Positions 1 through 13,982 of a DNA stretch of 64,000 nucleotides are shown here, one piece after another. Numbering within the stretch: position 1 is the stretch's first letter; the number at the start of each line of letters is the position of its first letter. The notes beneath the pieces were generated by a model, which saw only the letters and a list, made by a program, of their open reading frames with translations, ran no database searches and was not told the origin of the DNA. The DNA is taken from the NCBI GenBank assembly GCA_021081985.1, contig GCA_021081985.1_3639.1; one strand, written 5' to 3'. The stretch comes from a phage. A program made the position numbers and the translations under genes.

Positions 1-146
1 ATAATCTTGCGAATATTTGGTTTTACCCAATCAATAAAATCATCTAATTTATCCCGTCTGAACCTATATGCCAGATACACACATACAGAGAACAGTACAG
101 TAGTCAGTAGAACGAACACCCAATACCAAATCATAATTATTAACCT

Positions 147-1472
147 TTAATATATAGGATCCCACGTCAAAGAATCTACCTCACGAACACATTTGCCAAC
201 AGGAAATTGCGGAACACCGTCATCGGTCCTTGCTTGGTATGTAAAAGTTATATACTTGCCGATAAGTTTTTTCATATTCTCTTGTGAGCGTTCTTCGTGT
301 GTGCCTCTCATCTTACAGTTAAATTGTGTACCATCCTTCTCAGCACACAACAGGACACCTTCTCCATTCTTATCCTCAAAGGAATCAAGAACTCTGGCCT
401 CACCATCCTGAAACAATTTCCACTTTTGAAGATCAGACGATCTTTGTCCAAACTCATACTTTCCGTGAAAGTTCCTTATTACAACACCCTCATAACCTGC
501 TTCCATAAACTCCTTGATGAGCATTTTAACACGATCCTCATCAGACACTATTGCTCCGTGCACTACTTTAATCAGGTTATAAGGCCATGTATACTCAGAG
601 ACTTTCTGTAAATTATTAAACCTACACTTGTCTGTGTCAGAAGACATCCATGGTGTGTCATCTTCCGAAGGTATATCGAAAATATGATATTCTAAGTCTA
701 AACTTGAATAACCACAATACTTATTAATATTTTTCTCTGGTTTCTTTGTGATAGGATGTTCTAACCCTTCGGAGTCTTTCCAAAACTCATCACCATTGTT
801 AATTGCTTTTTCAAATCGCTTTATGTCTGATTGATAGTCTTTTTCTATCTCACATTCTATCTCTTCTGGTGTTCTCCATTTCTTAGCCAAAGAGACTATT
901 TTCTGGAGACTTAACCCATGAATATACAACTCTCCATCAAACATTTTCAATCCTGTCTTTTTGGCTAGTTTAGACATCTGATCAAGCAATTGGCCTTGTA
1001 CAGGATATGTTTTATTGCCACGACTATTAAACACAGGCACGCCATCATCACCAACCAGAACAAGTGCTCTAACACCATCAAGTTTTGGTTGAACATGCAA
1101 AGGATACACTAAAGAACTTTTCCTTTTGATGGCATCATGTGCCAGCATTGGTGAGAAATCTTGGGTTTTTGTAAGATCATCCTTAGATACGCGATACCCA
1201 AGGCGTACTTGTTTTTCCCACTTAGATTTTGCCTCCAAAACAGCTTGTTCTGTATCAGTTGTCTCATTTTTCTTACCGATGTTTTTGGCAAAGCATTTTG
1301 TGCGTTTATACTGCATTTTACCGTTTTCTTTACCAAACTCAACAACAGTTTCTGATCCATCTGCCCACACATTCCACACTTGATATGTACCATCCCTGTT
1401 TAGGGCGTATAGTGTTGGAAGGTTATTTTCAAGCATTAAATACCTCGCTTGTGACAACAGGTTTTCCTTCAA
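147..1472 (-). CDS. ATP-dependent ligase (nucleotidyltransferase superfamily)
   Basis: 441 aa; motif I KLDGVR (active-site Lys), motif IV EGVVIRN, motif V KWKLF. Confidence 0.75.
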   Translation of the reverse strand: MKENLLSQARYLMLENNLPTLYALNRDGTYQVWNVWADGSETVVEFGKENGKMQYKRTKCFAKNIGKKNETTDTEQAVLEAKSKWEKQVRLGYRVSKDDLTKTQDFSPMLAHDAIKRKSSLVYPLHVQPKLDGVRALVLVGDDGVPVFNSRGNKTYPVQGQLLDQMSKLAKKTGLKMFDGELYIHGLSLQKIVSLAKKWRTPEEIECEIEKDYQSDIKRFEKAINNGDEFWKDSEGLEHPITKKPEKNINKYCGYSSLDLEYHIFDIPSEDDTPWMSSDTDKCRFNNLQKVSEYTWPYNLIKVVHGAIVSDEDRVKMLIKEFMEAGYEGVVIRNFHGKYEFGQRSSDLQKWKLFQDGEARVLDSFEDKNGEGVLLCAEKDGTQFNCKMRGTHEERSQENMKKLIGKYITFTYQARTDDGVPQFPVGKCVREVDSLTWDPIY

Positions 1473-2214
1473 GGTGATTTTCTACCAACTCAATAAGTTT
1501 TTGGTTGCTGAATGCTTCAACTGCTCCACAGCGCATTTGGTACACACCATATTTATCATACTGCTCTTGTTCAAAGTAATTGATCGCTGGGTTTATTACA
1601 ACCAGTTTAATACCTCGTTTTGCGATTGCATGCAGCAATTCCCAGTTAAAGTCGATAACCTGATTAGAGCAGCCAACCAGAAGTACAAGATCTTGAGTAT
1701 TCAAGTCATCAAGCATGGTAAACATGTCCTGATAAAGTGGTGCATTCTCACCGAAAAATACCACATTTGGCTTGCACCACCAGTAATCATCAGGGTCAAC
1801 AACCGCATATCCGACATCAATCACACGTTTAGGAAACTCTTCACCATTCTGTACAACAAGCTCTTTGAGAAAACCATGTACATGGAGAATATCCTTCTTT
1901 TCAATGCCAGCACGTTCAAGCAGATCGTCAACGTTTGTTGTAAGATTACGTACTTGTCCAGGATAACGGTTATACCATTCTGCTACACGAAGATGTGCCA
2001 TGTTGGGGTGCACAGTCTTCAATTCTTCACGGCGTTTGTTATAAAATTCGTGTGTTTTGTGGTAAAAATTACCACGAAATGCATGAATATTACATACTTC
2101 TTCAAGATCATATTCATCCCAAAGAGCTTTACCTGACGAAGTATCTGTACGGAATGTGCGAATACCGCTTTCTGTTGACATACCTGCACCACTAATCACA
2201 AGTAATCGACGCAT
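1429..2214 (-). CDS. Sir2/sirtuin-family NAD-dependent protein
   Basis: 261 aa; N-terminal GAGMSTESGIRTFR matches the sirtuin NAD-binding signature. Confidence 0.75.
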   Translation of the reverse strand: MRRLLVISGAGMSTESGIRTFRTDTSSGKALWDEYDLEEVCNIHAFRGNFYHKTHEFYNKRREELKTVHPNMAHLRVAEWYNRYPGQVRNLTTNVDDLLERAGIEKKDILHVHGFLKELVVQNGEEFPKRVIDVGYAVVDPDDYWWCKPNVVFFGENAPLYQDMFTMLDDLNTQDLVLLVGCSNQVIDFNWELLHAIAKRGIKLVVINPAINYFEQEQYDKYGVYQMRCGAVEAFSNQKLIELVENHLEGKPVVTSEVFNA

Positions 2215-2222
2215 ATAACCAC

Positions 2223-2630
2223 CTATTGTAATTTTAAAGAGTTACGTAAACGTGCTTCTTGACGGTCACGAATAAACTGCGGGACATCATGAATGCTTTC
2301 GTTACCATGATAATTTTCCACAACTACAGATGTTACATCATAGCAGTAGTTTTCTGCTAAGTCAAGATAAGGTTTCAACTCTTTCGCAGAAGTTGTTGTG
2401 TTTGAAACAATAATCTTTTCAACTTCATTCTGCATGTGGAGTTCTACTTTGTCACGACACCATTGATGAGCTTTGTGGATATTTTCTTCTTTCCACTCAT
2501 ACACACCGTCTTCGGTGTAATGAAATTGGTCAGCTTCACACACAGGCCAACGACCATCATCAGACAACTCTTTAGCAAGAGTTGATTTTCCTGACCCAGA
2601 GACACCACGTAAAATAAATAACTTTTTCAT
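2223..2630 (-). CDS. small P-loop kinase, possibly polynucleotide 5'-kinase-like
   Basis: 135 aa; Walker A GVSGSGKST near N-terminus; sits between Sir2 and ligase-like genes. Confidence 0.55.
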   Translation of the reverse strand: MKKLFILRGVSGSGKSTLAKELSDDGRWPVCEADQFHYTEDGVYEWKEENIHKAHQWCRDKVELHMQNEVEKIIVSNTTTSAKELKPYLDLAENYCYDVTSVVVENYHGNESIHDVPQFIRDRQEARLRNSLKLQ

Positions 2631-2640
2631 TAGTTTTCCT

Positions 2641-2973
2641 TTAGTATTGGTGACGATAAAACTTTATACCTAAAGTGTTTTCGAAATATTCTCTCGCCAA
2701 CATAAACTTGTTCACGGCAGATGGGTTAGAGCTATGTACGTGAATCTCTTTAAGATTCGTAAACTTACCATCATGAAGCTCACGTTCAATATAGATGAAA
2801 GCATCGTAACCTTCCTCATCACCACCCAAATCATTATCAAAATGGATGGAATCAATGTCGCTATCACTCATAAATTTTAGTAATGAGTAGAAGCTAGAGA
2901 GATTCTTACACCATAAGGCATTAGGGTATCCATAATCTACTGGATTTCGCAGATCATCCAACCACAGTTTCAA
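2641..2973 (-). CDS. hypothetical protein in repair cluster
   Basis: 110 aa ORF tightly packed between kinase and ligase-like genes; no motif recognised. Confidence 0.45.
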   Translation of the reverse strand: MKLWLDDLRNPVDYGYPNALWCKNLSSFYSLLKFMSDSDIDSIHFDNDLGGDEEGYDAFIYIERELHDGKFTNLKEIHVHSSNPSAVNKFMLAREYFENTLGIKFYRHQY

Positions 2974-3902
2974 ATTGTACCTCCGAAAAAATCCTCAATA
3001 ATTTCACGACGGAATTGTTCATGCAAACATTCCCAATGTTCTTTAGAATAGTTATCACGCAAATAGTTTAAAAGGTTATAATACTCTTCGTCAACTTTCT
3101 TCTTAGCTTCTTCTGGGTTTCCCCAAATCATATCCCACTTGTTCTTACCGCCACGCATCAAAAATTTCTTCGCCAAATAGTGTGGTGATTTTATCTTCAA
3201 GAGAAGATCTTGCTGTCCTGTAGCAGCACGTACAACAAACCCTTCATGTTTGCATTCTTTAGACATTTTCAGGATGTCTGAAAAGTGCATATTTATGTAA
3301 GTCTCTGGTCGTTTAAAACCGAACTCTTTTGCGATAAGATCCAGAGCTTTTTCACTAAGCATAGAAGTTAATTTGTCTTTATGAAATCGAACACCAATCA
3401 AATACACACCTGCCTTTTCTGGTACAATGTGTGGGTCTGAAGGAGCGCAAATCTCAAAGATAAATGTTGTCTTTGGTTCTTCCACACATGATAACAACAT
3501 TGGCAAATTAGTACATTCTTCCATGATCATACCTTTTGCAAGTTTTGCAAAATCGGAATCTAGAGTTCCTGTTGTTGAAACAATTAGCTCACCATTGTAT
3601 GAGCTTACTGCTGCCATGAAGCCATTAACTTTACGTGCTGCATTCACAACCATATCTTTTGGAAGATCAGTACCGTTCTCTAAATGATTGAAAATCTTGG
3701 TAAAAGGCCACACAACGATGTTGTCATCACTGTCCACAACCATACCACGGCAATCAAGTAAGCGACTGTCTTGATCCCACAAGTTTTCCCAAAAAACTTT
3801 GTTACTGTATTTCAAAACAGACAAACCTTTAAACTCACCACTGGTATAAGTCTTCTTTTTGACAAGGCCTTTTGATACTAAATCTTCAACATTGAATTTC
3901 AT
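2970..3902 (-). CDS. ligase-family nucleotidyltransferase, likely RNA ligase
   Basis: 310 aa; motif I RKVNGF (KxNG), motif IV EGFVVR, motif V LLKIKSP. Confidence 0.6.
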   Translation of the reverse strand: MKFNVEDLVSKGLVKKKTYTSGEFKGLSVLKYSNKVFWENLWDQDSRLLDCRGMVVDSDDNIVVWPFTKIFNHLENGTDLPKDMVVNAARKVNGFMAAVSSYNGELIVSTTGTLDSDFAKLAKGMIMEECTNLPMLLSCVEEPKTTFIFEICAPSDPHIVPEKAGVYLIGVRFHKDKLTSMLSEKALDLIAKEFGFKRPETYINMHFSDILKMSKECKHEGFVVRAATGQQDLLLKIKSPHYLAKKFLMRGGKNKWDMIWGNPEEAKKKVDEEYYNLLNYLRDNYSKEHWECLHEQFRREIIEDFFGGTI

Positions 3903-4099
3903 TTGTCTTCACCGTCACTATTGTATGATTGTTTATTAAATGACTCAATTATACATGTTGATCGTCTTGCGTCAACAGATTGGCTTGTTAAATCTTTAGC
4001 AACAACTAGTTTTTCCACATCATCTTTTTTGATGGATCCGTAAGCACCAGAATCCATCATGAAGAATATTTTATCTTCTGTTATCTTGTGTATTTTCAT
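3899..4099 (-). CDS. hypothetical small protein
   Basis: 66 aa ORF, 4-nt overlap with upstream gene. Confidence 0.3.
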   Translation of the reverse strand: MKIHKITEDKIFFMMDSGAYGSIKKDDVEKLVVAKDLTSQSVDARRSTCIIESFNKQSYNSDGEDK

Positions 4100-4120
4100 T
4101 CATAAAATCTCAATAATTAT

Positions 4121-4699
4121 TCAATGGCCATCAGCAGTGAAAACGTCTTTTTCCATACACATTTGGTATGCTTCTGGCAGACCCAAAATTCTCCCATGTA
4201 CATCCCAACCAACATCAAGAATCCGTCCTTTCGCACTGTAAGATCCGTGACTGTGCCCATGCAAGAACACAGACCCATAGTGAGATTTATTCCACGCGGC
4301 AAACGGGTAATGACTCATACAAATTTTTTGTTCATAATCGTTAAATTCGTAATAATCGCACACATCATGACCACGTTTTTTGAATGTTTTAATCGCATCA
4401 AAATTGTCATGATTACCTTTGACAAGGACGATATGCCCAACAAGTTCATCAAGAATTTCTTCAAGTCTTTTAATAACTTGCTTGCCACGACCAAAACAAA
4501 AATCACCAAGCACAAAAGTCACAGTATCGGCATCTGCGCCGTGGTTAAATTTCACTGTGAGGTCTTGGTTCATTTGTTCAACGGTTTTGTACAAATCACC
4601 ACGAAAACGTTTTGAACTCTCAAAGTTCAGGATGTTTTTATGCCAGTAATGTAAATCAGATGTTACACGGTATTTGGTTCCCATTTCTCTCTCCCTCAC
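4121..4699 (-). CDS. calcineurin-like metallophosphoesterase
   Basis: 192 aa; GDxxxGR, GNHD and GHSH metal-binding motifs. Confidence 0.75.
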   Translation of the reverse strand: MREREMGTKYRVTSDLHYWHKNILNFESSKRFRGDLYKTVEQMNQDLTVKFNHGADADTVTFVLGDFCFGRGKQVIKRLEEILDELVGHIVLVKGNHDNFDAIKTFKKRGHDVCDYYEFNDYEQKICMSHYPFAAWNKSHYGSVFLHGHSHGSYSAKGRILDVGWDVHGRILGLPEAYQMCMEKDVFTADGH

Positions 4700-4709
4700 A
4701 CAACAAAAA

Positions 4710-5147
4710 TCACTGTCGCTCTAACAAATCTTCTGCTGGATAAGCATACAGCATGTATTCCCAACCACGATGGTAATGTCTGTGTTGCCAGTTGATTAAT
4801 TTTAGACACACAATGTTCACCACGTTCCTGTCCCCATGGATAAAAACACAAGTCTCAAGGATTGACTTTCCAAACTCAACATGACTGTCAAGATACAGTT
4901 TTGTGTTGTATCTTTTTTCAGCATCCAGCATGATCTGTTTCAAGGCCAGAAATGCCTCGCAACACACAGATTTTTCATCAGAAATCATTTTGATATTCAA
5001 GCATTCACCCCCACACAGGCAACCACGCAAATCGTGTCTGATCACCACAACACAATCGGTTTGAAACAAACCTGTTTGACACACAACAGGCATCGTCGTA
5101 GTGTCATGCCTAAACACAGACAGATATGATACGACGAAGATCCCCAC
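4710..5147 (-). CDS. hypothetical Cys-rich protein
   Basis: 145 aa ORF, several Cys pairs; first gene downstream of the AT-rich control region on the minus strand. Confidence 0.4.
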   Translation of the reverse strand: MGIFVVSYLSVFRHDTTTMPVVCQTGLFQTDCVVVIRHDLRGCLCGGECLNIKMISDEKSVCCEAFLALKQIMLDAEKRYNTKLYLDSHVEFGKSILETCVFIHGDRNVVNIVCLKLINWQHRHYHRGWEYMLYAYPAEDLLERQ

Positions 5148-5362
5148 ACAGAGTCACATAGTGACTTGTGACAACCCGAATCCATGATTGAGATAAACAC
5201 ACAGAGACAAACCTGTAGGGTTTGTTGATGTGGGTTTATCTCAGAATGGCTCATGAGGGTTAGATGATCACAAGCTATCAGCGCAGTGAGCATCTTACAC
5301 ACTCACGTATTGCCTGAAGAGTCTCATCGACTCATGCTTTCAGGCAAAACACTATGAACTCT

Positions 5363-5406
5363 ATGATTCGAAATCATCGAACCATACGATTCGACTCAAT
5401 CGAATC
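5363..5406. repeat. palindromes ATGATTcgaAATCAT and GATTCGA-n5-TCGAATC
   Basis: Perfect inverted repeats read directly in the divergent intergenic region. Confidence 0.6.
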
Positions 5407-5493
5407 ATATCAACAAAAATATTTAAAATCAAGTCTTGACATTCTTCAAGACTTAATGTATTTTAAATAAATTTTATATAATATATTATTATA

Positions 5494-5596
5494 TATAATA
5501 CGTAGTATTATATTATATTAAATTATATTATATAATTTATATTATATTAGATCATATTAAATAGATCATAGTATTATAATACGTAGTATTATATTT
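5494..5596. repeat. AT-rich direct repeats (aatacgtagtattatat x2, tagatcat x2)
   Basis: Two copies of a 17-19 nt unit about 80 bp apart in an almost pure AT stretch. Confidence 0.6.
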
Positions 5597-5644
5597 AATA
5601 GATCTTATAAGTTAGTTTAATTTGATCAGTTAGTATTGTGTCCC

Positions 5645-5689
5645 CAAAACGGGGACATACCCATGTCCCTGAAATGGGGACATATGGGA
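5645..5689. promoter_or_regulatory. paired hairpin/operator-like sites GTCCCC-n-GGGGAC
   Basis: gtccccaaaacggggaca and gtccctgaaatggggaca in tandem just upstream of a TTGACA box. Confidence 0.4.
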
Positions 5690-5693
5690 GGGG

Positions 5694-5722
5694 TTGACAT
5701 TGTGTGGGGTTATGGGTAGCAT
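5694..5722 (+). promoter_or_regulatory. sigma70-like promoter candidate
   Basis: TTGACA, 17-nt spacer, TAGCAT. Confidence 0.35.
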
Positions 5723-6129
5723 TCTCGGTGTTGGATTACACACCGGAGTTTGCCTTGAAATCTAATGTTGGGGGTTTCCATGTAAATCCGAAAGCTGGGT
5801 CATACATCGCTGTCCCGACAGAGTGGGTTTTTGATGAACGGTTATCACCAAGCGATCTGCAAAGATTGATACGCTTGTTGTGGAGATACGAGTATTTCAA
5901 GAATCTGAACCCTCTGGGTGGGGAACTGGTATTCTTTCCGTCACAACAATCCTTGTGTGGCCTGTTGGGGTGGAATGAAAACTCACGAACCAAAGTGTCT
6001 GAATTTCTGTCTCGGATGGAGAGCTTTGGTTATATCAGGCGTGTTAGATCAGGATTTCAGGATTCTGATGGTAACGTGAAACCAAGAAATTATATTATCG
6101 TCAATCGTATCAGAGGGGATAAATCATGA
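5704..6129 (+). CDS. hypothetical protein
   Basis: 141 aa ORF, 4-nt overlap with the downstream Prs-like gene; start uncertain because it overlaps the promoter-like site. Confidence 0.4.
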   Translation: MGLWVAFSVLDYTPEFALKSNVGGFHVNPKAGSYIAVPTEWVFDERLSPSDLQRLIRLLWRYEYFKNLNPLGGELVFFPSQQSLCGLLGWNENSRTKVSEFLSRMESFGYIRRVRSGFQDSDGNVKPRNYIIVNRIRGDKS

Positions 6130-6935
6130 ATATTCGTTTGAGTTTGAACAAGCTACATGTGCCAGTTGACCATTTCACATTTAGTGGTGGTGAGGAGCAG
6201 ATTAAGATCGATATGCGTCATGTTCCGCATGGTTCGATAGGTTTTGTTGATATCTTCGCTAGACTCAAGAACTCACAGGATGTGATGTGTTTGGCACTGC
6301 TTGTTGATGCAGTTAATCGTCTTGGCAATTTGGATGTTGGTGTGGAAAAGGTTTTACACCTGCCGTACATTCCGTATGCTCGACAAGACCGAGTTATGAA
6401 CCCTGGAGAATCTCTGTCGGTGAAAGTCTTTGCCACAATGATTAACTCGCTTGGTTTCCACAAAGTCATCGTCGATGATCCACACAGTGACGTATCCGCA
6501 GCACTGATTGATAACGTGAAAATTCGTTCTCAGACTGATTTGTTCTTGAACATGAATTTTGATTTTGATCTGCTTACGGACGAATCGCTTGTGTTGGTTG
6601 CTCCAGATGCAGGTGCACGCAAGAAGACCCAGAAGGTTGCTGATACCTTGGAACTATCTGTGGTTGAAGCAGGTAAAATCCGTGATGTGGGAACAGGGGC
6701 AATCACAGGCACAACAGTGTTTGGTGATGTTGGTGGGAAGACATGCCTGATTGTCGATGATATCTGCGATGGTGGGTTTACGTTTACAAACTTAGCTCAA
6801 GCCTTGAAAGCTGCTGGTGCAAAACGTGTTATTTTGTATGTTACGCATGGAATTTTCTCTCGTGGGAAAGAATTTATTCTCGACGGTGGTGTTGACGAAA
6901 TTTATGCATACTACGACTGGACAGAAAATTTTTAA
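6126..6935 (+). CDS. PRPP-synthetase-like phosphoribosyl pyrophosphokinase
   Basis: 269 aa; PRPP-binding signature LVAPDAGA and IVDDICDGG. Confidence 0.7.
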   Translation: MNIRLSLNKLHVPVDHFTFSGGEEQIKIDMRHVPHGSIGFVDIFARLKNSQDVMCLALLVDAVNRLGNLDVGVEKVLHLPYIPYARQDRVMNPGESLSVKVFATMINSLGFHKVIVDDPHSDVSAALIDNVKIRSQTDLFLNMNFDFDLLTDESLVLVAPDAGARKKTQKVADTLELSVVEAGKIRDVGTGAITGTTVFGDVGGKTCLIVDDICDGGFTFTNLAQALKAAGAKRVILYVTHGIFSRGKEFILDGGVDEIYAYYDWTENF

Positions 6936-6999
6936 GTTGGTATTGACAAAGATACGTTTTAGTGAAAAAATACGTTTTTAGGATTGGAGGGTTGAGATC

Positions 7000-8715
7000 A
7001 TGCTTCACAAAGAAAGTCCATTGCTGTTTGCAGATTTTTATAAACCAAGTCACATCTCGATGTACGACAAACGTTCACAGTTTGTTCAAGACAACATGAC
7101 ACCACGCAATGCGAAACACTTTGTACACTTTGCAGATGATGACCATCGTGTAATGTTTGCTGGTCTTCAGGGATTTATCAAGTGGTTCCTGATTGACATG
7201 TTTAATAATAATTTCTTTGCTTTACCGAAAGAAAAGGCGATTCAGGATTACAAAGAGATTTGTGATTTGAGCATTGGGAAGGATGCTGTTGAAACTTGGG
7301 GTTTTGAGAGATTGCATGATCTTGGATATCTCCCAATTGAAATTAGAGCTTTGCCTGAAGGAACTCTTGTTCCTGTTCAGGTTCCTATGTTCACGATTCA
7401 GAACACGCACCCTGATTTTTACTGGCTGCCAAACTTCCTTGAGAGCGTGATCTCCTCGGAGACTTGGAAGACAATTACCACGGCAACGACTTTCTGGCAA
7501 TATCGTAAACTATCAGAACTGTGGGCAAAGAAAACATGTGATAACAACGATCACGTTCCTTTCCAGAACCATTGTTTTGCATACCGTGGTGAAGCTGGAA
7601 CACATGACGCAGCACAGAGCGAATTTGGGCAACTGATTAGCTCAATGGGCACAGATACAATTCCAGCGATTGTTTACGCAAATCGCTATTACAACATGAA
7701 AGGTCGCTTTGTTGCTGGGTCTATTCCCGCATCTGAGCATAGCGTAGCGACAACGAACATTGGTTTTATTGTTGAGCGTATCCAGCAGGAAAATCCTGAC
7801 ATGTCGCTTGCTGAAGCACGTTTTCGTGCTGAAGTTGAGTTCTTAAAGCGTTATGCAACAGAGATTTTTCCGTCAGGCTATGCTTCATACGTCGCAGACA
7901 GCTATGATTTTTGGGCAATCATTACACAAGCAGCCAAAATCCTGAAAGATGAGATTATGTCTCGTGATGGCAAGCTGGTCTTCCGACCGGACAGTGGGAT
8001 CCCAGAGCACATCATTGCTGGCTATCGTGTGTGCTCTCAGGAAGAATGGGCAACGGGACAGTGCTGTGATATGGATGCTGTGCTGTTTAAAAATGGCAAA
8101 TATGTCACTCTGTACGAGATGTCCAGAGACACTTCTTGGATGCGAGATTCGGAAGGCAACCTCGTAGATTGGAAATCTTTGACAGGTGATGAATTTACAA
8201 ATTATCTTACCAAAGAGGAGGTTAAGGGTGCTGTACAATGCTTGTGGGAAATCTTTGGTGGTAGTGTAAACTCTTTGGGTTACAAAGTTCTTGATAGCCA
8301 TGTTGGTTTAATCTACGGAGACTCTATCACAATCTCTCGTGCTAAAGAGATCTTTGAGCGCCTTGAAGAACGAGGCTTTGCTTCCAGCAACATTGTGTTT
8401 GGTGTAGGATCTTATACAACGCAATATACAACCCGTGATTCTCTTGGGATGGCTGTAAAAGCTACTGGTGCTGTGATTGATGGCAGACAAGTAATGGTTG
8501 TAAAAGAGCCTAAGACTGATCTTGGGAAGAAATCTGCGAAAGGTTTTGTTAAAGTTATTCGTGGTGATGATGGTGAGTTGAAGCTGGTAGATAATCTTGG
8601 TATTAATCAGGTATCTGACCCTGACAACGAGCTTAGAACAGTTTTTGTTAATGGTAAGCTGCTTGTGGATGAGGATCTTGAAGAAATTCGTCAAAGAGCT
8701 TTGTCACAGCTTTAG
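7000..8715 (+). CDS. nicotinamide phosphoribosyltransferase family protein
   Basis: 571 aa; N-terminus LFADFYKPSH and overall length typical of NAMPT/NadV. Confidence 0.75.
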   Translation: MLHKESPLLFADFYKPSHISMYDKRSQFVQDNMTPRNAKHFVHFADDDHRVMFAGLQGFIKWFLIDMFNNNFFALPKEKAIQDYKEICDLSIGKDAVETWGFERLHDLGYLPIEIRALPEGTLVPVQVPMFTIQNTHPDFYWLPNFLESVISSETWKTITTATTFWQYRKLSELWAKKTCDNNDHVPFQNHCFAYRGEAGTHDAAQSEFGQLISSMGTDTIPAIVYANRYYNMKGRFVAGSIPASEHSVATTNIGFIVERIQQENPDMSLAEARFRAEVEFLKRYATEIFPSGYASYVADSYDFWAIITQAAKILKDEIMSRDGKLVFRPDSGIPEHIIAGYRVCSQEEWATGQCCDMDAVLFKNGKYVTLYEMSRDTSWMRDSEGNLVDWKSLTGDEFTNYLTKEEVKGAVQCLWEIFGGSVNSLGYKVLDSHVGLIYGDSITISRAKEIFERLEERGFASSNIVFGVGSYTTQYTTRDSLGMAVKATGAVIDGRQVMVVKEPKTDLGKKSAKGFVKVIRGDDGELKLVDNLGINQVSDPDNELRTVFVNGKLLVDEDLEEIRQRALSQL

Positions 8716-8728
8716 CAGCATAATCATT

Positions 8729-8751
8729 CCCCTCCGCACGGAGGGGTTTTT
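8729..8751 (+). terminator. rho-independent terminator
   Basis: CCCCTCCG-cac-GGAGGGG followed by TTTTT. Confidence 0.7.
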
Positions 8752-8769
8752 CATTCCTAGGAGAGCGTT

Positions 8770-8976
8770 TTGAGAAATTTCGTAGTCAAGCACGACAGAA
8801 ACCGTGCATCAGTCCACACAGACATGAAAAAAGCGTGGGAGCCAGATATCCTTGACGGACTAGAAGAACATTACATCGAAGTCGGTCTTTGCAAGGATGC
8901 CTCATGTGACCTTTCCCCTCATGAGATTGCAGTAGCAGAATACGAACGTGGTGTCAAGGCTTCTGGAATAGTTTAA
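8770..8976 (+). CDS. hypothetical small protein
   Basis: 68 aa ORF. Confidence 0.3.
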   Translation: MRNFVVKHDRNRASVHTDMKKAWEPDILDGLEEHYIEVGLCKDASCDLSPHEIAVAEYERGVKASGIV

Positions 8977-9044
8977 TTGACAAAAATAAACACCACTGAT
9001 AAGATCTAATAACAAGATAAAAATAAAGTTAGTGGTGATTTGTT

Positions 9045-9293
9045 ATGTTTAAATTAAAAATGGTTCTTAAGTCTGATAACGGGGAGTACGTAGAACATGA
9101 GTCTTTTCATAAAACACATGATGATGCGCTTGAAGAAGCGGATGATGTCGCTTTTTCTACAACTGGTTTTGGAATTGAATCCTGGAAATATATTGCATCG
9201 TTCGGTGAAGAAGGCGGGTTATATTATTTCTACCCCATCGAAGGGATTAGTACAACAAAGTACGTTATCAGGATCCTTAGAACAACCGTATAA
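9045..9293 (+). CDS. hypothetical small acidic protein
   Basis: 82 aa ORF. Confidence 0.3.
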   Translation: MFKLKMVLKSDNGEYVEHESFHKTHDDALEEADDVAFSTTGFGIESWKYIASFGEEGGLYYFYPIEGISTTKYVIRILRTTV

Positions 9294-9575
9294 AAATCGT
9301 AAACAAAGACGTGCAGAAGCTGCAATGAAAAGATCACGGAGAAAAGTAAGATGACCAAAACGTATACTGAAGAGACGCATAAACAAGTTGAGTTGTTGCT
9401 TTGTAGGTTACAACAGTGTATTGACAGAGTTCGTATTTTACGTTTTGAGTTTGAAAATAATATCTCTTAATGTGAGGAATGTATGAGAAAAGGTATTGAT
9501 TTTGAAAAAGAAGTTGGTTTCGGGGAAGGGTGTCATCAAGAAGAAAATTGGGATGTTTAAAATTTTAAAATATCT

Positions 9576-9604
9576 CTTGACAATGTAGATCATACAGGAT
9601 AACA
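9576..9604 (+). promoter_or_regulatory. sigma70-like promoter upstream of tRNA-Met
   Basis: TTGACA, 17 nt, TAACAT, about 22 nt before the tRNA 5' end. Confidence 0.5.
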
Positions 9605-9626
9605 TCATCTCATACCAAAGAGATAC

Positions 9627-9702
9627 GGCCCCTTAGCTCAGTGGTTAGAGCAGGTGACTCATAATCGCTTGGTCGCTGGTTAAAGTCCAGCAGGGGCCAC
9701 CA
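9627..9702 (+). tRNA. tRNA-Met (CAU)
   Basis: Acceptor GGCCCCT/AGGGGCC, anticodon loop CTCATAA, T-arm GGTTAAAGTCC, encoded CCA. Confidence 0.8.
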
Positions 9703-9754
9703 AATGTGGCACACGAAATAAACTAGGTTTATTGTTTTCGGAGGAGAAAACTTA

Positions 9755-10078
9755 ATGGCTAAGAAACAGTCTGCTAAAAAGGTATCAGCTATCGAGGCGA
9801 TCAAGCAACCTTTTCAGTTTGAATCAAAATCCACGCAGACACATTCTGCACCGCACGATGTGCGTCTTGGTGGCAAAACGCAAACTGTAGCAGTTCTGAA
9901 AAAACGCAAAGATGAAGACGGTAATACTGAAATGTATTATGAATCTGTGTCTCGTGTCATTGGTGGTGAAGTGATTTCTGCTTCCTATCGTATCCGTACT
10001 GGGAAAACAAAGCGTGAACGAGAAGTGAAACAGAAAACAAGCACTCCTGTAGGAAACGTTAAGAAAACTAAAAAATAA
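9755..10078 (+). CDS. hypothetical Lys-rich basic protein
   Basis: 107 aa ORF directly after tRNA-Met. Confidence 0.4.
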   Translation: MAKKQSAKKVSAIEAIKQPFQFESKSTQTHSAPHDVRLGGKTQTVAVLKKRKDEDGNTEMYYESVSRVIGGEVISASYRIRTGKTKREREVKQKTSTPVGNVKKTKK

Positions 10079-10154
10079 TTTACTGACGAGAGTGCCACCG
10101 TGAGCCAGCGTCATTAAACAAAGGGAATCACGGACATTCAGGAGGGTTGAGATT

Positions 10155-10346
10155 ATGATAGGATCTTTGCTTAAGATTGCAAGCGATGTAACAACAACGG
10201 CTGTTGAAGTGACTGCTGCGGTAACAACTCCGTTTGTTGATTTAGCATCAGATGCTATAGCAGCAGCAGACGAGATGATTTTGTCACCGACATCTGATCT
10301 TGTCCAAGATCTTTGTGATTCTATAAAAGATGCTGTAAAAGATTAA
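10155..10346 (+). CDS. hypothetical small acidic protein
   Basis: 63 aa, rich in Asp/Glu/Ala/Thr. Confidence 0.35.
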   Translation: MIGSLLKIASDVTTTAVEVTAAVTTPFVDLASDAIAAADEMILSPTSDLVQDLCDSIKDAVKD

Positions 10347-10354
10347 AATTTTTC

Positions 10355-10383
10355 TTGACATAGTTTTTGTTTTTCTGTATAGT
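10355..10383 (+). promoter_or_regulatory. sigma70-like promoter
   Basis: TTGACA, 17 nt, TATAGT. Confidence 0.55.
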
Positions 10384-10419
10384 TACTTTATCAAAGCTAA
10401 TTTACATAGGAGAGATTGA

Positions 10420-11067
10420 ATGTCTACTAAGATTTCCGTAACTCGTGCACTTGCTTCTATCTCTAAGATTGAAGATAAGATCAATAAGCGCATTTATAAC
10501 CTTGAATGTATTAAGATTGCAAAAGGAACTGAGAATAATTGTAAGATTCCTGGTTATATCGGCTCTGTTGATGATTTTAAGAAATCTGCGATCAACGACT
10601 ATCAAAGTCTGCAAGACCTCTTGGCAGTTCGCGATGAACTGAAGGCAAAAATTGTCAAGTCTAATGCTGAGACAATTGTCAAAATTGGTAAGGTGTCTAT
10701 GACAGTTGCTGAGGCAATCGAACGCAAACGGACGATTTGCTTTAAACAAGAGTTGTTAAACAAACTTTGTGCACAGCGTGCTTCTGCACAGCTTCTTCTG
10801 GCAAAAGAAGAAAAATCTCTGGAAGATAAACTTGAAAATGCCAGAGCGCCATATATCCAACGTGATAAAGCGCCAGATGCAGAGCAGATTAAGACTGTGG
10901 AAGCTCCCATTCGAATGATGAACACACCATCGGTTGTGGATCCTCTTGAACTGGCTTCTAAGATTCGTTCTCTTGAAGAAGAGATTGAAGATTTCTTGTC
11001 TAACGTTGATTTTGCGTTGTCTGAGTCAAACGCTAAGACAGAAATTGAGATTGAGCACTCTCTCTAA
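10420..11067 (+). CDS. hypothetical coiled-coil protein
   Basis: 215 aa, charged and helix-rich. Confidence 0.5.
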   Translation: MSTKISVTRALASISKIEDKINKRIYNLECIKIAKGTENNCKIPGYIGSVDDFKKSAINDYQSLQDLLAVRDELKAKIVKSNAETIVKIGKVSMTVAEAIERKRTICFKQELLNKLCAQRASAQLLLAKEEKSLEDKLENARAPYIQRDKAPDAEQIKTVEAPIRMMNTPSVVDPLELASKIRSLEEEIEDFLSNVDFALSESNAKTEIEIEHSL

Positions 11068-11432
11068 AAGGCTCTGATAATATCATTATCGTTCCTTTGT
11101 TTTGAAATTTAAAACATTGCTTTTGATTAACGAAGTTTACATCATCTTGCCTCCTGGGGATTGGAGGTTAAATATTCCCCACCATGTATCGTATATGTAT
11201 GAGGATAATACAGAACATAGATGCAGCGAGGCACACGAAGATGCTTTGTTGTTTCCACTAAGTAAAAGTTCATACAATAAAGGTCAATGGTTAAATGTGA
11301 AAGATGAAACTTGAAAGTTGACTCTTGAAAGATAAAATTTCGTTTATCATCTGAAATCCTTGACACAGGTTATGGCTCACAAGATATGGTCTGTAAAGCC
11401 TCAAGGCTGTTAATCGGAAGCAATGTCTTATT

Positions 11433-11507
11433 GCTCGTATAGCTCAACGGTAGAGCACCTGCCTTGTAAGCAGGGGGTTGCAGGTTCGAAACCTGCTGCG
11501 AGCACCA
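11433..11507 (+). tRNA. tRNA-Thr (UGU)
   Basis: Acceptor GCTCGTA/TGCGAGC, D-arm GCTC..GAGC, anticodon loop CTTGTAA, T-arm GCAGGTTCGAAACCTGC, CCA. Confidence 0.8.
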
Positions 11508-11509
11508 AT

Positions 11510-11606
11510 GCTGGGTAAGCCCTTTGGCAAGGGCGAGGATTTATAATCCTGAAAATAGACGGGCTAGCCGTTGAATACATAGGTGGTTCGATTCCATCAC
11601 CCAGCC
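11510..11606 (+). ncRNA. non-canonical tRNA-like RNA
   Basis: tRNA-type acceptor (GCTGGGT/ACCCAGC), D-arm and T-arm (GGTGGTTCGATTCCATC), but the anticodon position is a closed hairpin AGGATT-tat-AATCCT followed by a second tight hairpin; about 97 nt, no CCA. Confidence 0.4.
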
Positions 11607-11807
11607 ACAAGTTTGTTTTATAGTGTATTAGCTTATATTATTCGATATAAATGCCTGATCAGCATTTGTTGTGAATGAGGCATACAATGCGTGAGAAAGC
11701 TATCGGTGCGCAACGTTGATTTCAAACGTAGTCATGCTCGTAGAGCACCAACTGTGGAAGTTGGAGGGTGGTTGAGTAACCATACACTATAAAGCATTCT
11801 TTAAAAT

Positions 11808-11892
11808 GGGCGGTGTCCCCACACAAGTCTTCTAAACTTGTACTTAAAAAGTGGGAAGGAAGTGAGAGGTTCGATTCCTCCACCGTCTACCA
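11808..11892 (+). ncRNA. non-canonical tRNA-like RNA
   Basis: 3' end TTCGATTCC...ACCGTCTACCA with a pairing 5' segment GGGCGGT, no D-arm, internal hairpin ACAAGT-cttctaa-ACTTGT. Confidence 0.3.
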
Positions 11893-11968
11893 GATTAACC
11901 CCAACTTGAGAATCGTCAGCGCGGCTCGTAAGACCCACTCTATAGGTTCTCTACCTGGGGTGCTTATT

Positions 11969-12045
11969 GCACGGTTGCCGGAATTTGGTTACGGGTCTGT
12001 CTGCAAAACGGATATATGTCGGTTCAAGTCCGACACCGTGCTCCA
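11969..12045 (+). tRNA. tRNA-Cys (GCA)
   Basis: Acceptor GCACGGT/ACCGTGC, anticodon arm TCTGT-CTGCAAA-ACGGA, T-arm GTCGGTTCAAGTCCGAC, CCA; D-stem imperfect. Confidence 0.65.
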
Positions 12046-12082
12046 AACTTTCAATTTCTTGGCAAATATGTTAAAATACCAC

Positions 12083-12111
12083 TTGACAGATATGTTTTTA
12101 TTTGATAATAT
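12083..12111 (+). promoter_or_regulatory. sigma70-like promoter
   Basis: TTGACA, 17 nt, TAATAT, followed by RBS and ATG at 12132. Confidence 0.6.
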
Positions 12112-12131
12112 CATTAAGTGGGGTTTTTAAA

Positions 12132-12479
12132 ATGGCTACTAAGCAGCTTACAAAACGTAGAAGAGGAAAAGGTCGTCCTCTGAAAGAGGAATCTAATGCA
12201 ATTCAGTTAGAGAAAAATATCCTAGATTTGAAAACGAATCTGATTGCAATGATTCCTGAAGCTCATCAGGTTCTTAGGGATTTGATGAAGAATGTGAATA
12301 CAAAAGACAATATCAGAGAAAATATCGCTCGTTATGTTATTGAGAAAGGTGAGCAGATGCTTTCTGATTACTTTGATGAGGAAAACGAAGAGTTACTCGA
12401 AAAAGATAACTCAGAAAAAGCGCCTATTAAGGCAGCCAAACCATTCTCGACGGATATTGTTCAATTCAAACAAGGTTAA
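12132..12479 (+). CDS. hypothetical protein with basic N-terminus
   Basis: ORF track 12102..12479; start moved to the ATG after the promoter and RBS (MATKQLTKRRRGKGRP...). Confidence 0.45.
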   Translation: MATKQLTKRRRGKGRPLKEESNAIQLEKNILDLKTNLIAMIPEAHQVLRDLMKNVNTKDNIRENIARYVIEKGEQMLSDYFDEENEELLEKDNSEKAPIKAAKPFSTDIVQFKQG

Positions 12480-12480
12480 T

Positions 12481-12570
12481 GTGTCGTTAGACCGTAGGGG
12501 TAGCGGGGGAGACTGTAAATCTCCTGTCTCGAAAGGGACTCGGGTAGTTCGACTCTATCACGGCACACCA
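12481..12570 (+). tRNA. tRNA-Tyr (GUA), type II
   Basis: Acceptor GTGTCGT/ACGGCAC, anticodon arm GGAGA-CTGTAAA-TCTCC, long variable arm, T-arm GGTAGTTCGACTCTATC, CCA. Confidence 0.75.
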
Positions 12571-12638
12571 ACTAAATCTGTACTGGCTTTGATGTGTGAC
12601 GATACCCTCCAATCGTGGTTGTTGGGTCAGTACAGTTT

Positions 12639-12714
12639 GGGAGTGTAGATCAGTTAGTAGATCGCTCGACCGATAATCGAGAGGACGTAGGGGCAGAGCC
12701 TACCACTCCCACCA
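12639..12714 (+). tRNA. tRNA-Ile (GAU)
   Basis: Acceptor GGGAGTG/CACTCCC, D-arm GATC..GATC, anticodon arm CTCGA-CCGATAA-TCGAG, CCA; position 33 is C and the T-loop is atypical. Confidence 0.6.
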
Positions 12715-12719
12715 AATAT

Positions 12720-12794
12720 GCATCCATAGTTTAATTGGGAAAACTACAGCCTTCCAAGCTGAAGTCGAGGGTTCGATGCCCTCTGGATGCTCCA
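12720..12794 (+). tRNA. tRNA-Gly (UCC)
   Basis: Acceptor GCATCCA/TGGATGC, anticodon loop CTTCCAA, T-arm GAGGGTTCGATGCCCTC, CCA. Confidence 0.75.
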
Positions 12795-12919
12795 GTTAAA
12801 AGATGTCAATGAAATCCGCTTGGGTCAACTGAAGACCGTAACAAATTCCATGGGGTTGTGTTTGCGGTCCAACCCTAGACATCTTCTATCTTTAGTAGAA
12901 GGCTTTAATACGGACGAGT

Positions 12920-13150
12920 ATGATGGTTTCTAAATTAATCATAACAAGGCATCATAATGCTAAAGAAATAGAGATTGTGAATGCTGCTGGCACTCTTGTG
13001 CTAAAAGTTGGTAAAGACTGTCCTTTTGAATTGTGCCAGAAGGAACTTTTAAGTTTGTGCGGTTTCAGGTTTAAACAGATTATCTTTGAAAATGCTTTTC
13101 AATATTCAGACTTAAACCAGTACATTATATCTAGGCTTGATCCTGCATGA
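12920..13150 (+). CDS. hypothetical small protein
   Basis: 76 aa ORF, 4-nt overlap with the next gene. Confidence 0.35.
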   Translation: MMVSKLIITRHHNAKEIEIVNAAGTLVLKVGKDCPFELCQKELLSLCGFRFKQIIFENAFQYSDLNQYIISRLDPA

Positions 13151-13704: not shown

Positions 13705-13710
13705 TTTTTA

Positions 13711-13792
13711 ATGAGAGTAGCGTAACTTCACTGGGTGAAGGCTGGCCTCCAAAACCAGTGACTAAGAGGTTCGATTCCTCACTCTCGTGCCA
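13711..13792 (+). tRNA. tRNA-like, possibly tRNA-Trp (CCA)
   Basis: Acceptor ATGAGAG/CTCTCGT, loop CTCCAAA, T-arm GAGGTTCGATTCCTC, CCA; D-region is over-long and non-canonical. Confidence 0.4.
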
Positions 13793-13793
13793 A

Positions 13794-13869: not shown

Positions 13870-13878
13870 AGTTAAAAC

Positions 13879-13968: not shown

Positions 13969-13982
13969 GTTTTTAAGGATTT

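Follow-up and report, generated by a model that had tools for sequence, protein, structure and literature searches.

An intact phage sirtuin encoded in an RNA-repair operon and its possible role in tRNA repair

The phage DNA analyzed here (the window, a stretch of 64,000 nt) encodes a protein that, judging from its profile matches and alignments, is a genuine sirtuin with intact catalytic residues, referred to below as Sir2. The gene is part of a compact operon that is an RNA end-healing and sealing cassette. The role we consider most likely, with a probability of roughly 45%, is in phage RNA (tRNA) repair, where Sir2 would remove 2′-phosphates as KptA does, rather than act as a defence-type NADase. 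Sir2 is already known as a member of a common, annotated phage family (PHROG 2162, the family of T5 gene T5.102). Its context is already described in print, and as a gene of this window it is ordinary. Iyer et al. 2022 (Viruses 14:1977; PMC9503650, section 3.7.3) described the rV5/Mydo-type neighborhood of this sirtuin clade and predicted that the clade removes RNA 2′-phosphates like KptA/Tpt1. An earlier note on this DNA held that neither substrate nor role was predictable from sequence. A role had been predicted in that paper (PMC9503650). A search of the literature for experimental work on any member of the phage sirtuin clade found none.

The sirtuin ORF spans exactly the interval given in Table 1, from an ATG start to a TGA stop. 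The protein has a single domain, and SIR2 is its only Pfam match. Pfam SIR2 (PF02146) covers profile positions 1–178 of 180 with E = 6.4e-26 and 91.8 bits (cut-off 24), and PHROG 2162, ‘Sir2 (NAD-dependent deacetylase)’, matches with E = 6.2e-101. Both scores are far above chance. The claim of an intact sirtuin in a phage is borne out. The sirtuin motif GAGMSTESGIRTFR forms residues 9–22. The catalytic histidine is H113, within LHVHG, and H113-G114 aligns with E. coli CobB. The NAD-pocket motifs G9-A10-G11-x-S13, S16-G17, F21-R22, T93-N94-V95-D96, G181-x-S183 and N208 all align with CobB as well. The earlier note had proposed checking the catalytic His and the NAD pocket by alignment; both are present, and all of these residues are invariant across 59 homologues apart from S13, with at least 90% conservation. 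The Y58-x-x-R61 pair, equally invariant across the 59 homologues, aligns with Y92 and R95 of CobB (the mutant names in 6rxm and 6rxs confirm the numbering). Three pocket positions engineered in CobB variants, A76, Y92 and I131, correspond to C41, Y58 and V95, which are invariant in the clade, and the VxFFGE loop is invariant in the clade alignments. The same alignments show no conserved Cys/His pairs of a Cys4 zinc module between H113 and K148. The sole cysteine in this segment, C147, varies between C, V and A across the clade.

The best PDB sequence match of Sir2 is CobB (1s5p, 3.4e-19). An AF2 model (pLDDT 90.5) keeps a three-stranded sheet where the zinc module would sit, and its top Foldseek matches are CobB, Sir2-Af1 and SIRT5, with TM values against CobB of 0.82–0.85 when normalized to target length. 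Sir2 has the same fold as CobB and SIRT5, with structural-alignment identities of 27–28% and 22–23%, respectively, and shares with them the NAD-pocket motifs, the catalytic His and the Y-x-x-R anion-recognition pair. CobB and SIRT5 have zinc cysteines, whereas the phage clade is without them. The clade is derived from class III (CobB/SIRT5-type) sirtuins and has lost the zinc site. The best-scoring NCBIfam models are protein deacylase models, and all seven matching models score under their own cut-offs, including the subfamily model NF001753 (115.1 bits, cut-off 243) and the CobB equivalog NF040867 (96.8 bits, cut-off 320). Recent acquisition of a host CobB orthologue was rejected on the basis of the ~27–28% identity, the scores below all equivalog cut-offs and the clade-wide loss of the zinc site.

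Homologues are found in 1006 of 50,697 phage records, including T5 and all close relatives of the phage studied here, so a phage-borne copy is not unexpected, contrary to the earlier note. Positions 1–9000 of the window are 94–96% identical to Escherichia phages vB_EcoM_TH18, 18-1-2, 24-2-1, 19-1-2 and Av-05, and the source phage overall is ~94–98% identical to vB_EcoM_TH18, 18-1-2 and Av-05. The homologue in the nearest relatives is already annotated as SIR2 deacetylase, the default database label. In tblastn, Sir2 shares 95.8% identity with the SIR2 gene annotated in Escherichia phage 19-1-2; its identity to database cluster P0001 is 97%. This annotated gene is also present in TH18 and 18-1-2, where the DNA is 94% identical. 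Identity is 48–70% for the homologues of Mydo-, T5-, rV5- and Erwinia-type phages. Outside phages, 185,579 species genomes gave only two pattern matches to the clade, one of them on a contig with T4-type phage genes. The clade appears to be essentially phage-restricted and its context is RNA repair and NAD+ reconstitution, whereas CobB and SIRT5 serve cellular metabolism.

Table 1. Features in and around the Sir2 operon (positions in the window)
Feature	Position	Strand	Evidence or description
ATP-dependent DNA ligase	147–1472	−	Pfam DNA_ligase_A_M 9.3e-15, DNA_ligase_OB_2 1.6e-10; PHROG 114
Sir2/sirtuin gene	1429–2214	−	261 aa; Pfam SIR2, PHROG 2162, CobB alignment, AF2 model
P-loop kinase, polynucleotide-kinase-like	2223–2630	−	135 aa; Pfam AAA_33 9.4e-10; PHROG 2071 1.5e-52
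cREC (cyclic-phosphate-processing receiver domain) protein	2641–2973	−	110 aa; Pfam cREC_REC PF20274 7.6e-16
T4 Rnl1-type RNA ligase	2970–3902	−	310 aa; Pfam RNA_lig_T4_1 4e-18; PHROG 562 3.6e-66
Small ORF	3899–4099	−	66 aa; PHROG 20147 1.1e-17
Calcineurin-like metallophosphoesterase	4121–4699	−	192 aa; Pfam Metallophos 6.4e-08; PHROG 547 9.2e-45
Divergent control region	5440–5690		~170–200 bp almost pure A/T, degenerate repeats, then two palindrome copies
Adps-like protein (Prs-fold ADP-ribose pyrophosphokinase)	6126–6935	+	Pfam Pribosyltran, Pribosyl_synth, Pribosyltran_N; PHROG 619 2.4e-92
Namat-like protein (nicotinamide ADP-ribose transferase)	7000–8715	+	571 aa; PDB 9W5X, 9W5W
Array of 14 tRNA genes	9627–15958	+	ARAGORN; directly downstream of NARP1

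The operon runs leftward in the order metallophosphoesterase, 66-aa ORF, Rnl1, cREC, kinase, Sir2 and DNA ligase, with gaps of at most 21 nt or overlaps of 4–8 nt. Sir2 thus lies beside ligase and repair genes, as the earlier note had it, and the DNA ligase, kinase, cREC, RNA ligase and phosphoesterase are all on its strand. The DNA ligase overlaps the 3′ end of Sir2, and an in-frame ATG at 1436–1434 covers the last Sir2 codons and the stop; a DNA ligase is also directly downstream of Sir2 in loci L001–L006 and L055. The kinase, 8 nt upstream of Sir2, has the Walker A motif GSGKST and also matches PHROG 505 ‘polynucleotide kinase’ (4.4e-11). The cREC translation shows receiver-type acidic residues (LDDLR, FDNDLG); cREC is predicted to process cyclic ADP-ribose or RNA cyclic phosphates (PMC7824862). 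The Rnl1-type ligase contains the nucleotidyl-transferase motif KVNG. The metallophosphoesterase shows DxH, GD, GNHD and GHxH motifs and is a candidate remover of 2′/3′-phosphates or cyclic phosphates. The 66-aa ORF is kept in some related cassettes, and its homologues hold the same position in L005 and L055. Among solved structures, the kinase, Rnl1 and the phosphoesterase gave weak matches or none. In a promoter and terminator scan of positions 1–9700, promoter-like sites were no commoner than in shuffled sequence; gene spacing is thus the only basis on which the operon boundaries are drawn.

The four partners of the published type 2 neighborhood (T4-like RNA ligase, cREC, nucleotide kinase and calcineurin-like phosphoesterase) are all present in the operon (2223–4699). 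Compared with the rV5/Mydo-type ‘RNA-repair sirtuin’ of Iyer et al. 2022, PHROG family and neighborhood are the same and nothing substantive differs. The published type lists MazG, while none is seen in the part of the operon within the window, and the cassette of the window is placed back-to-back with NARP1 and the 14-tRNA array.

The divergent region, which carries repeat families D1 and D2/I8, separates this leftward operon from the rightward NARP1 and tRNA block. The earlier note saw NAD+ salvage-like genes across it. NAD+-related genes are indeed near, but they are NARP1 rather than generic salvage. The Namat-like protein matches 9W5X and 9W5W, both SpbetaL1 Namat (PMC12774641), at 2e-124 and true NAMPTs only at ~2e-48. 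The Adps-like and Namat-like genes are adjacent, with 64 nt between them, and this pairing is the NARP1 arrangement (preprint 10.1101/2024.02.11.579819). By these matches the Prs-like and NAMPT-like neighbors are Adps and Namat of NARP1, a known counter-defence pathway. The adjacent pair is the same as in known NARP1 (Osterman et al. 2024), although the Namat-like protein is ~80 aa longer than the solved Namat, a 141-aa ORF stands in front of the pair and the back-to-back layout with an RNA-repair operon is absent from the NARP1 papers examined. The NARP1 genes (6126–8715) are ~3.9 kb from Sir2, on the opposite strand, past five further genes and the ~1 kb divergent region; the operon that holds Sir2 is a more telling context than these divergent genes. 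The tRNA array includes Lys-UUU, Tyr-GUA, Asn-GUU, Gln-UUG and Thr-UGU.

Sir2 has similar neighbors in other phages. We surveyed 68 Sir2-anchored IMG/VR loci for marker genes within 10 kb, and Rnl1, cREC, HAD_SAK_2 or CCA-HD is present in 42 of them. Rnl1 was found by tblastn in 11 rV5-, Mydo- and Erwinia-type loci; a profile search adds L060, a 607-kb contig with Rnl1 two genes upstream of Sir2, giving 12 of 68. Gene order of the Sir2/Rnl1 cassette differs in L008 and L054, and the cassette survives rearrangement. HAD_SAK_2 is a ‘Swiss Army Knife RNA repair’ HAD domain. In T5, T5.105 matches HAD_SAK_2 (4e-20) and T5.102 sits three genes upstream of it; this type of pairing is present in 28 T5-like loci. 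In jumbo phage BF17 the order is Sir2, Nudix, cREC, and in L067 (284-kb contig) a CCA-adding-enzyme/HD protein is immediately downstream of Sir2. This confirms that RNA-end-repair genes are linked independently to the sirtuin clade in T5, in jumbo phages and in the window.

The fold, the active site, membership of the clade, the operon layout and the recurring RNA-repair neighbors are observations; what Sir2 acts on, by what chemistry, and how it is tied to NARP1 we infer in the following scheme, whose repair steps follow Iyer et al. 2022. RNA cut by a metal-independent RNase, such as a host anticodon nuclease, would have 2′,3′-cyclic-phosphate and 5′-OH ends. The cyclic phosphate would be opened or trimmed by cREC and/or the metallophosphoesterase, the 5′-OH phosphorylated by the P-loop kinase and the break sealed by the Rnl1-type ligase. 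The sirtuin would then remove the remaining 2′-phosphate with NAD+, like Tpt1/KptA. A phosphate oxygen would attack C1″ of NAD+ and expel nicotinamide, and the ribose 2″-OH, activated by H113, would attack phosphorus, yielding RNA with a 2′-OH and ADP-ribose 1″,2″-cyclic phosphate. Both steps would parallel the normal two-step sirtuin deacylation. Y58-x-x-R61 could hold the phosphate; in SIRT5 and CobB this anion-binding pair anchors the succinyl carboxylate. The adjacent NARP1 could rebuild NAD+ from nicotinamide and ADP-ribose after dephosphorylation of the by-product, and the repair would therefore cost no net NAD+. The proposed likeness to Tpt1/KptA (see also PMC9503650) includes the two-step NAD+ reaction with release of nicotinamide and a 1″,2″-cyclic ADP-ribose species, and the tie to RNA ligase, kinase and cyclic-phosphodiesterase pathways. 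The fold of Tpt1/KptA is unrelated to Sir2 and there is no sequence homology, so any similarity would be functional.

Several observations weigh against this KptA-like role. All residues for CobB-type deacylation are kept, and the sequence does not distinguish an RNA-phosphate pocket from an acyl-lysine pocket. A Tpt1-like step is not logically required, because the metallophosphoesterase of the cassette could clear 2′/3′-phosphates. Most Sir2 carriers are T5-likes, which have no homologue of this Rnl1, and Salmonella phages account for 14 of 766 Rnl1 records versus 289 of 1006 Sir2 records. Because phage genes group by expression time and by counter-defence role, adjacency carries less weight in phages than it does in bacteria. 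Sir2 is present in two of 35 Rnl1 lineages, in locus sets seeded with sequences from such cassettes (the Rnl1 set being the best 80 of 360 matches), and many Rnl1/kinase/cREC cassettes have no sirtuin. An E. coli KptA query, validated only by the RNA 2′-phosphotransferase annotation of its hits, found KptA homologues in another 98 phage records, most of them from jumbo phages. Displacement of Sir2 by KptA could not be shown, because the three sampled phage KptA loci had no equivalent cassettes, with one Macro as the only cassette gene.

A serious rival, possible but less probable, is that Sir2 is a CobB-like NAD+-dependent protein lysine deacylase (deacetylase or desuccinylase). Expressed early, it would deacylate proteins of the host or of the phage, such as metabolic enzymes, the transcription machinery or the adjacent lysine-dependent ligases, and NARP1 would simply keep the cosubstrate supplied. 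This matches the default annotation and the best NCBIfam models. The nearest sequences and structures are all deacylases, and the catalytic His, the VxFFGE loop, the Y-x-x-R pair that recognizes succinyl-lysine and the CobB-variant pocket positions are all filled by invariant residues. In addition, 24 of the 68 loci have none of the sought RNA-repair or NAD+-related markers near Sir2. These include a lineage of 12 loci on ~140–153 kb contigs, L039 being one member; in phage vB_vPM_PD06, the presumed counterpart of L039, an RNA ligase is ~31 kb from the Sir2 position. The neighbors of Sir2 in the L048 group (12 loci) and in the KVP40-like Vibrio phage K566, a DNA methyltransferase, topoisomerase II or uncharacterized proteins, are uninformative. 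However, Sir2 scores far under the CobB cut-offs, the Cys4 zinc module, which builds part of the peptide cleft, is gone clade-wide, and the host already has CobB. A general deacylase activity also leaves the repeated, independent occurrence of Rnl1, cREC, HAD_SAK_2, Nudix-cREC and CCA-adding neighbors unexplained. Housekeeping deacetylation, which the earlier note had set aside, probably does not explain everything.

Cassettes with an RNA ligase are frequently found next to NARP1. Of 35 Rnl1 lineages, 13 have Namat no more than 10 kb from Rnl1, in a sample biased by its seeding from such cassettes, and the published genome frequency of NARP1 is 4.3%; the excess in this cassette-seeded sample is suggestive rather than a clean statistic. 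Among Rnl1-NARP1 modules, two lineages have Sir2, eight have Macro and none has both, but we do not rely on this exclusivity because the probability of the pattern by chance is ~0.13 (hand calculation). A more ambitious form of the repair proposal, which we regard as doubtful, makes Sir2 the first sirtuin acting on nucleic acid, a Tpt1/KptA analogue in a closed NAD+ loop with its neighbors. The sirtuin would spend one NAD+ per repaired tRNA, giving nicotinamide and ADP-ribose 1″,2″-cyclic phosphate. The by-product would be converted to ADP-ribose by cREC and/or the metallophosphoesterase and then to NAD+ by NARP1; in sirtuin-less phages (JG004, Gary) the Macro phosphatase Adpp would convert it. 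Rnl1/kinase/phosphoesterase cassettes beside NARP1 would then form a single ‘tRNA repair plus NAD+ recycling’ module rather than just an island of counter-defence genes.

It is improbable that Sir2 is an NAD+-dependent ADP-ribosyltransferase on another target (RNA or DNA 5′-phosphate ends, as in capping, a host protein or host immune nucleotides) or a processor of NAD+-derived small molecules. It would then belong with the surrounding NAD+/ADP-ribose conflict genes and not with RNA sealing. Some lineages that pair Sir2 with such genes and have no RNA ligase cassette within 10 kb are consistent with this. In L061 Sir2 is directly beside NARP1, a DNA ligase and MazG; in L202 the order is NADAR, a 240-aa ORF, a NAMPT-like gene and Sir2; in L059 a nucleoside 2-deoxyribosyltransferase-like gene adjoins Sir2; in BF17 Nudix follows Sir2. 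Moreover, cREC itself has been proposed to act on cyclic ADP-ribose as well as on RNA cyclic phosphates (PMC7824862), and some sirtuins do ADP-ribosylate (cited in PMC9503650). However, the deacylase-type active-site architecture is kept and the sequence reveals no candidate target. There is also no coupled Macro or ‘eraser’ gene, unlike in SirTM-Macro pairs; Macro is present in one of the 68 Sir2 loci, and a scan of nine proteins at 147–8715 detected no Macro domain.

The earlier note had likened Sir2 to the defence SIR2 effectors, which are of the same superfamily and likewise use NAD+, and although ThsA, DSR1/DSR2, SIR2-HerA/Nezha and short pAgo systems (SPARSA) contain SIR2 NADases (literature summarized in PMC9503650) and the NAD pocket of Sir2 is intact, an NAD+-depleting NADase for host shutdown or superinfection exclusion is very unlikely: at E ≤ 1 the 5027 PADLOC defence models give no match to Sir2, and each of the 50 best structural matches listed is a canonical sirtuin. 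The single-domain protein is neither fused nor adjacent to a sensor, SLOG, HerA, Argonaute or DSR C-terminal domain partner, and an unregulated NADase would be unlikely in lytic phages that carry NARP1 beside it to restore NAD+.

If the KptA-like prediction is right, sirtuin chemistry extends from acyl-lysine to RNA phosphate, and phages run a yeast- or plant-style tRNA repair, with a 2′-phosphate junction and its NAD+-dependent removal, against host RNA-cleaving defences. About 2% of sequenced phages encode a member of the clade, among them the model phage T5 and several phages of the BASEL collection, which makes genetic and biochemical tests straightforward. The adjacency of the cassettes to NARP1 hints that rebuilding NAD+ may support phage RNA repair besides countering NAD+-depleting defences.

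The Sir2 gene encodes a protein of 261 residues with the N-terminus MRRLLVISGAGMSTESGIRTFR. The protein covers the whole Pfam SIR2 domain (E = 6.4e-26), scoring 91.8 bits where the cut-off is 24, and matches PHROG 2162, 'Sir2 (NAD-dependent deacetylase)', with an E-value of 6.2e-101, which confirms the sirtuin identified in the earlier note. The closest solved structures by sequence are E. coli CobB (3.4e-19), Sir2-Af1/Af2, SIRT5 and Sir2Tm. An AlphaFold2 model built with 59 homologues as input has a mean pLDDT of 90.5, and a Foldseek search of the PDB matches the model best with CobB (TM 0.82–0.85, normalized by target length), Sir2-Af1 and SIRT5, all class III deacylases. The 59 homologues share, with little or no variation, the NAD-pocket motifs, the catalytic H113-G114, the K-P-x-V-x-F-F-G-E loop and Y58-x-x-R61; neither the catalytic His nor the NAD pocket, whose possible loss had been raised, is missing. 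The Y-x-x-R pair in SIRT5 and CobB binds the carboxylate of succinyl- or malonyl-lysine, and such an invariant pair is suited to anion binding. Y92 and R95 of CobB are the counterparts of Y58 and R61 in the alignment, a numbering that agrees with the mutants named in PDB entries 6rxm and 6rxs. No conserved zinc-binding cysteines occur anywhere in the clade in the 59-homologue alignments, the protein falls far under the cut-off of every NCBIfam CobB/deacylase model, and at E ≤ 1 it has no hit among the 5027 PADLOC defence models. Together with the class III structural neighbors, these features place the protein in a divergent, CobB-derived phage clade without a zinc site, and not among defence-type SIR2 proteins.

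The window is phage DNA. Positions 1–9000 are 94–96% identical to Escherichia phages vB_EcoM_TH18, 18-1-2, 24-2-1, 19-1-2 and Av-05, and the gene is annotated 'NAD-dependent protein deacetylase of SIR2 family' in the first four, the tally being restricted to these as Av-05 does not match the Sir2 stretch. Of 50,697 phage records, tblastn finds homologues in 1006, and 873 of these are near full length. The carriers are T5-like (T5.102 in T5 itself), rV5-like, Mydo-like, Justusliebigvirus and related ~150-kb Escherichia phages, KVP40-like Vibrio phages and jumbo phages. Clade-specific peptide patterns are found at only two loci in cellular genomes (185,579 bacterial and archaeal species, one genome each), one of them on a MAG-binned contig with T4-type phage genes. 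Contig JBOFGC010000083.1 (L202), labelled as a Bacilli MAG, carries NADAR, NAMPT-like, sirtuin, T4 endonuclease VII and NrdD/NrdG genes at 4664–11669, a gene set that identifies it as a misbinned phage contig. The clade is widespread among phages and essentially confined to them, so a phage-borne sirtuin is unsurprising. The previous interpretation was partly right, but its 'unexpected, defence-like' framing was wrong. Since databases and the literature already contain the gene, the family and the context, all three are known and not new.

The genes from the metallophosphoesterase to the DNA ligase form a tightly packed leftward run, and the DNA ligase has an in-frame ATG overlapping the end of the Sir2 gene. 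This neighbourhood is the type 2 arrangement of Iyer et al. 2022 (PMC9503650), whose prototypes are phages V5 and Mydo and whose sirtuin was proposed to be KptA-like and to remove 2'-phosphates that stem from 2',3'-cyclic phosphates. The cREC domain, defined by the same authors in 2021 in a jumbo-phage paper (PMC7824862), is a predicted processor of cyclic ADP-ribose or 2',3'-cyclic phosphates. We found no experimental study of the PHROG 2162 clade in the literature.

Positions and strands of the features in the window
Feature	Position	Strand
ATP-dependent DNA ligase	147–1472	-
Sir2	1429–2214	-
P-loop kinase (AAA_33, polynucleotide-kinase-like)	2223–2630	-
cREC domain protein	2641–2973	-
T4 Rnl1-type RNA ligase	2970–3902	-
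66-aa ORF	3899–4099	-
Calcineurin-like metallophosphoesterase	4121–4699	-
A/T stretch with repeats, then palindromes	5440–5690	
Palindrome, two copies	5639–5684	
141-aa ORF	5704–6129	+
Namat-like protein gene	7000–8715	+
14 tRNA genes	9627–15958	

Across the divergent region, three genes run rightward: the 141-aa ORF, one Prs-like and one NAMPT-like. The NAMPT-like protein matches the SpbetaL1 Namat crystal structures 9W5X and 9W5W (PMC12774641) at 2e-124, against ~2e-48 for true NAMPTs. By sequence comparison the pair labelled 'NAD+ salvage-like' is therefore NARP1, which reconstitutes NAD+ from ADP-ribose and counters NAD+-depleting defences (preprint 10.1101/2024.02.11.579819). The Namat-like protein has 571 residues, compared with 491–496 in solved Namat. 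Its phmmer match to solved Namat falls into two stretches, indicating an insertion of ~80 residues past about residue 342, common to relatives in locus L061 and phage JG004. Within the divergent region, ~170–200 bp consist almost wholly of A/T and contain degenerate repeats, both direct and inverted, followed by two copies of the palindrome TGTCCCCAAAACGGGGACATA, the second with three differences. The ORF just past the palindromes matches PHROG 8453, with weaker hits to a replication-initiator PHROG and an HTH domain. From its sequence, the whole region looks like an origin or iteron-type control region. In related phages the GenBank record is cut close to it (~5137–5258). The tRNA genes, directly past NARP1, include Lys-UUU, Tyr-GUA, Asn-GUU, Gln-UUG and Thr-UGU. 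With genes for RNA repair and NAD+ reconstitution next to spare tRNAs, the whole looks like a counter-defence island.

Neighbors within 10 kb were counted in 68 sirtuin-anchored IMG/VR loci. Rnl1 lies near Sir2 in 11 loci by tblastn (rV5-, Mydo- and Erwinia-type), with the gene order changed in L008 and L054, and a profile search adds the 607-kb jumbo contig L060, where Rnl1 is two genes upstream, giving 12/68. T5-like loci have neither Rnl1 nor NARP1 genes within 10 kb; three genes downstream of Sir2 they encode a phosphatase of the HAD_SAK_2 ('Swiss Army Knife RNA repair') type (T5.105, 4e-20), followed by two DUF7415 proteins. RefSeq labels T5.105 (8589–9095 in the T5 locus L069) as a second 'Sir2 (NAD-dependent deacetylase)', which, given its Pfam match, is an annotation error. 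Jumbo phage BF17 has the order Sir2, Nudix, cREC. In the 284-kb jumbo contig L067 (9977–11944), the gene directly downstream of a sirtuin homologue (34% identity) encodes a CCA-adding-enzyme-like protein that combines PolyA_pol head, RNA-binding and HD domains; here too the sirtuin is independently paired with tRNA-end repair. Overall, 42 loci have Rnl1, cREC, HAD_SAK_2 or CCA-HD within 10 kb; Adps, Namat or Macro occurs in 10 and NARP1 in nine. The 24 loci with none of these seven within 10 kb include a 12-locus group of ~140–153-kb contigs. In phage vB_vPM_PD06 an RNA ligase lies ~31 kb from the Sir2 position.

RNA ligase cassettes also occur beside NARP1. In the sirtuin-less phages JG004 (Pakpunavirus; L070, 1–10000) and Vibrio phage Gary (L071, 5000–10900), Rnl1 and the AAA_33 kinase directly adjoin NARP1, and a metallophosphoesterase lies within a few kb of the pair, beside the kinase in Gary and upstream of Rnl1 in JG004. 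Both NARP1 regions include a Macro gene; in Gary it sits between Adps and Namat, the position of Adpp, the Macro-domain ADP-ribose-1''-phosphate phosphatase of this phage (preprint 10.64898/2026.01.28.702374). Among 35 IMG/VR Rnl1 lineages (best 80 of 360 matches, a sample biased by its seed sequences), Namat is within 10 kb in 13, Macro in eight and the sirtuin in two; Macro and sirtuin never occur together, an exclusivity that is not significant (~0.13, hand calculation). The terms 'RNA ligase' and 'RNA repair' are absent from the two NARP1 preprints searched, which leave the Rnl1–NARP1 adjacency unmentioned, and the passages of Iyer et al. (PMC9503650) on NAD+ salvage draw no tie to RNA repair. 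The adjacency is only a lead: it fits NAD+ spent in RNA repair being recycled by NARP1, and fits simple counter-defence gene clustering as well.

The best explanation of the sirtuin, to which we give a probability of about 0.45, is a KptA-like RNA-repair enzyme, because unrelated RNA-end-processing partners recur beside it in at least four to five lineages, which is hard to explain otherwise. In sirtuins and Tpt1 alike, an oxygen nucleophile first attacks C1'' of NAD+, and the ribose 2''-OH then attacks the electrophilic centre to give a 1'',2''-cyclic species; KptA-like chemistry is plausible by this analogy. Several points weigh against such a role. The cassette phosphoesterase could render 2'-phosphate removal needless, the T5-likes, which are most of the carriers, are without this Rnl1, the sirtuin is rare among the Rnl1 lineages sampled, and adjacency in phages is confounded by early-gene and counter-defence clustering. 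The active site also fits acyl-lysine equally well. A CobB-like protein deacylase is the nearest competitor, though an unlikelier one. ADP-ribosylation of another target, or the processing of small molecules derived from NAD+, is rather improbable; it draws on lineages with the sirtuin near NAD+/ADP-ribose genes and the RNA ligase absent nearby. In L061, where no RNA ligase cassette lies within 10 kb, the sirtuin is directly beside NARP1, DNA ligase, MazG and an SPFH/Band 7 protein, and in L202 the order is NADAR, a 240-aa ORF, NAMPT-like, Sir2. An HNH endonuclease gene sits between Adps and Namat in L061 (6515–7168). A NADase is very improbable in view of the silent PADLOC defence models. What remains of interest is the prediction that this sirtuin acts on RNA.
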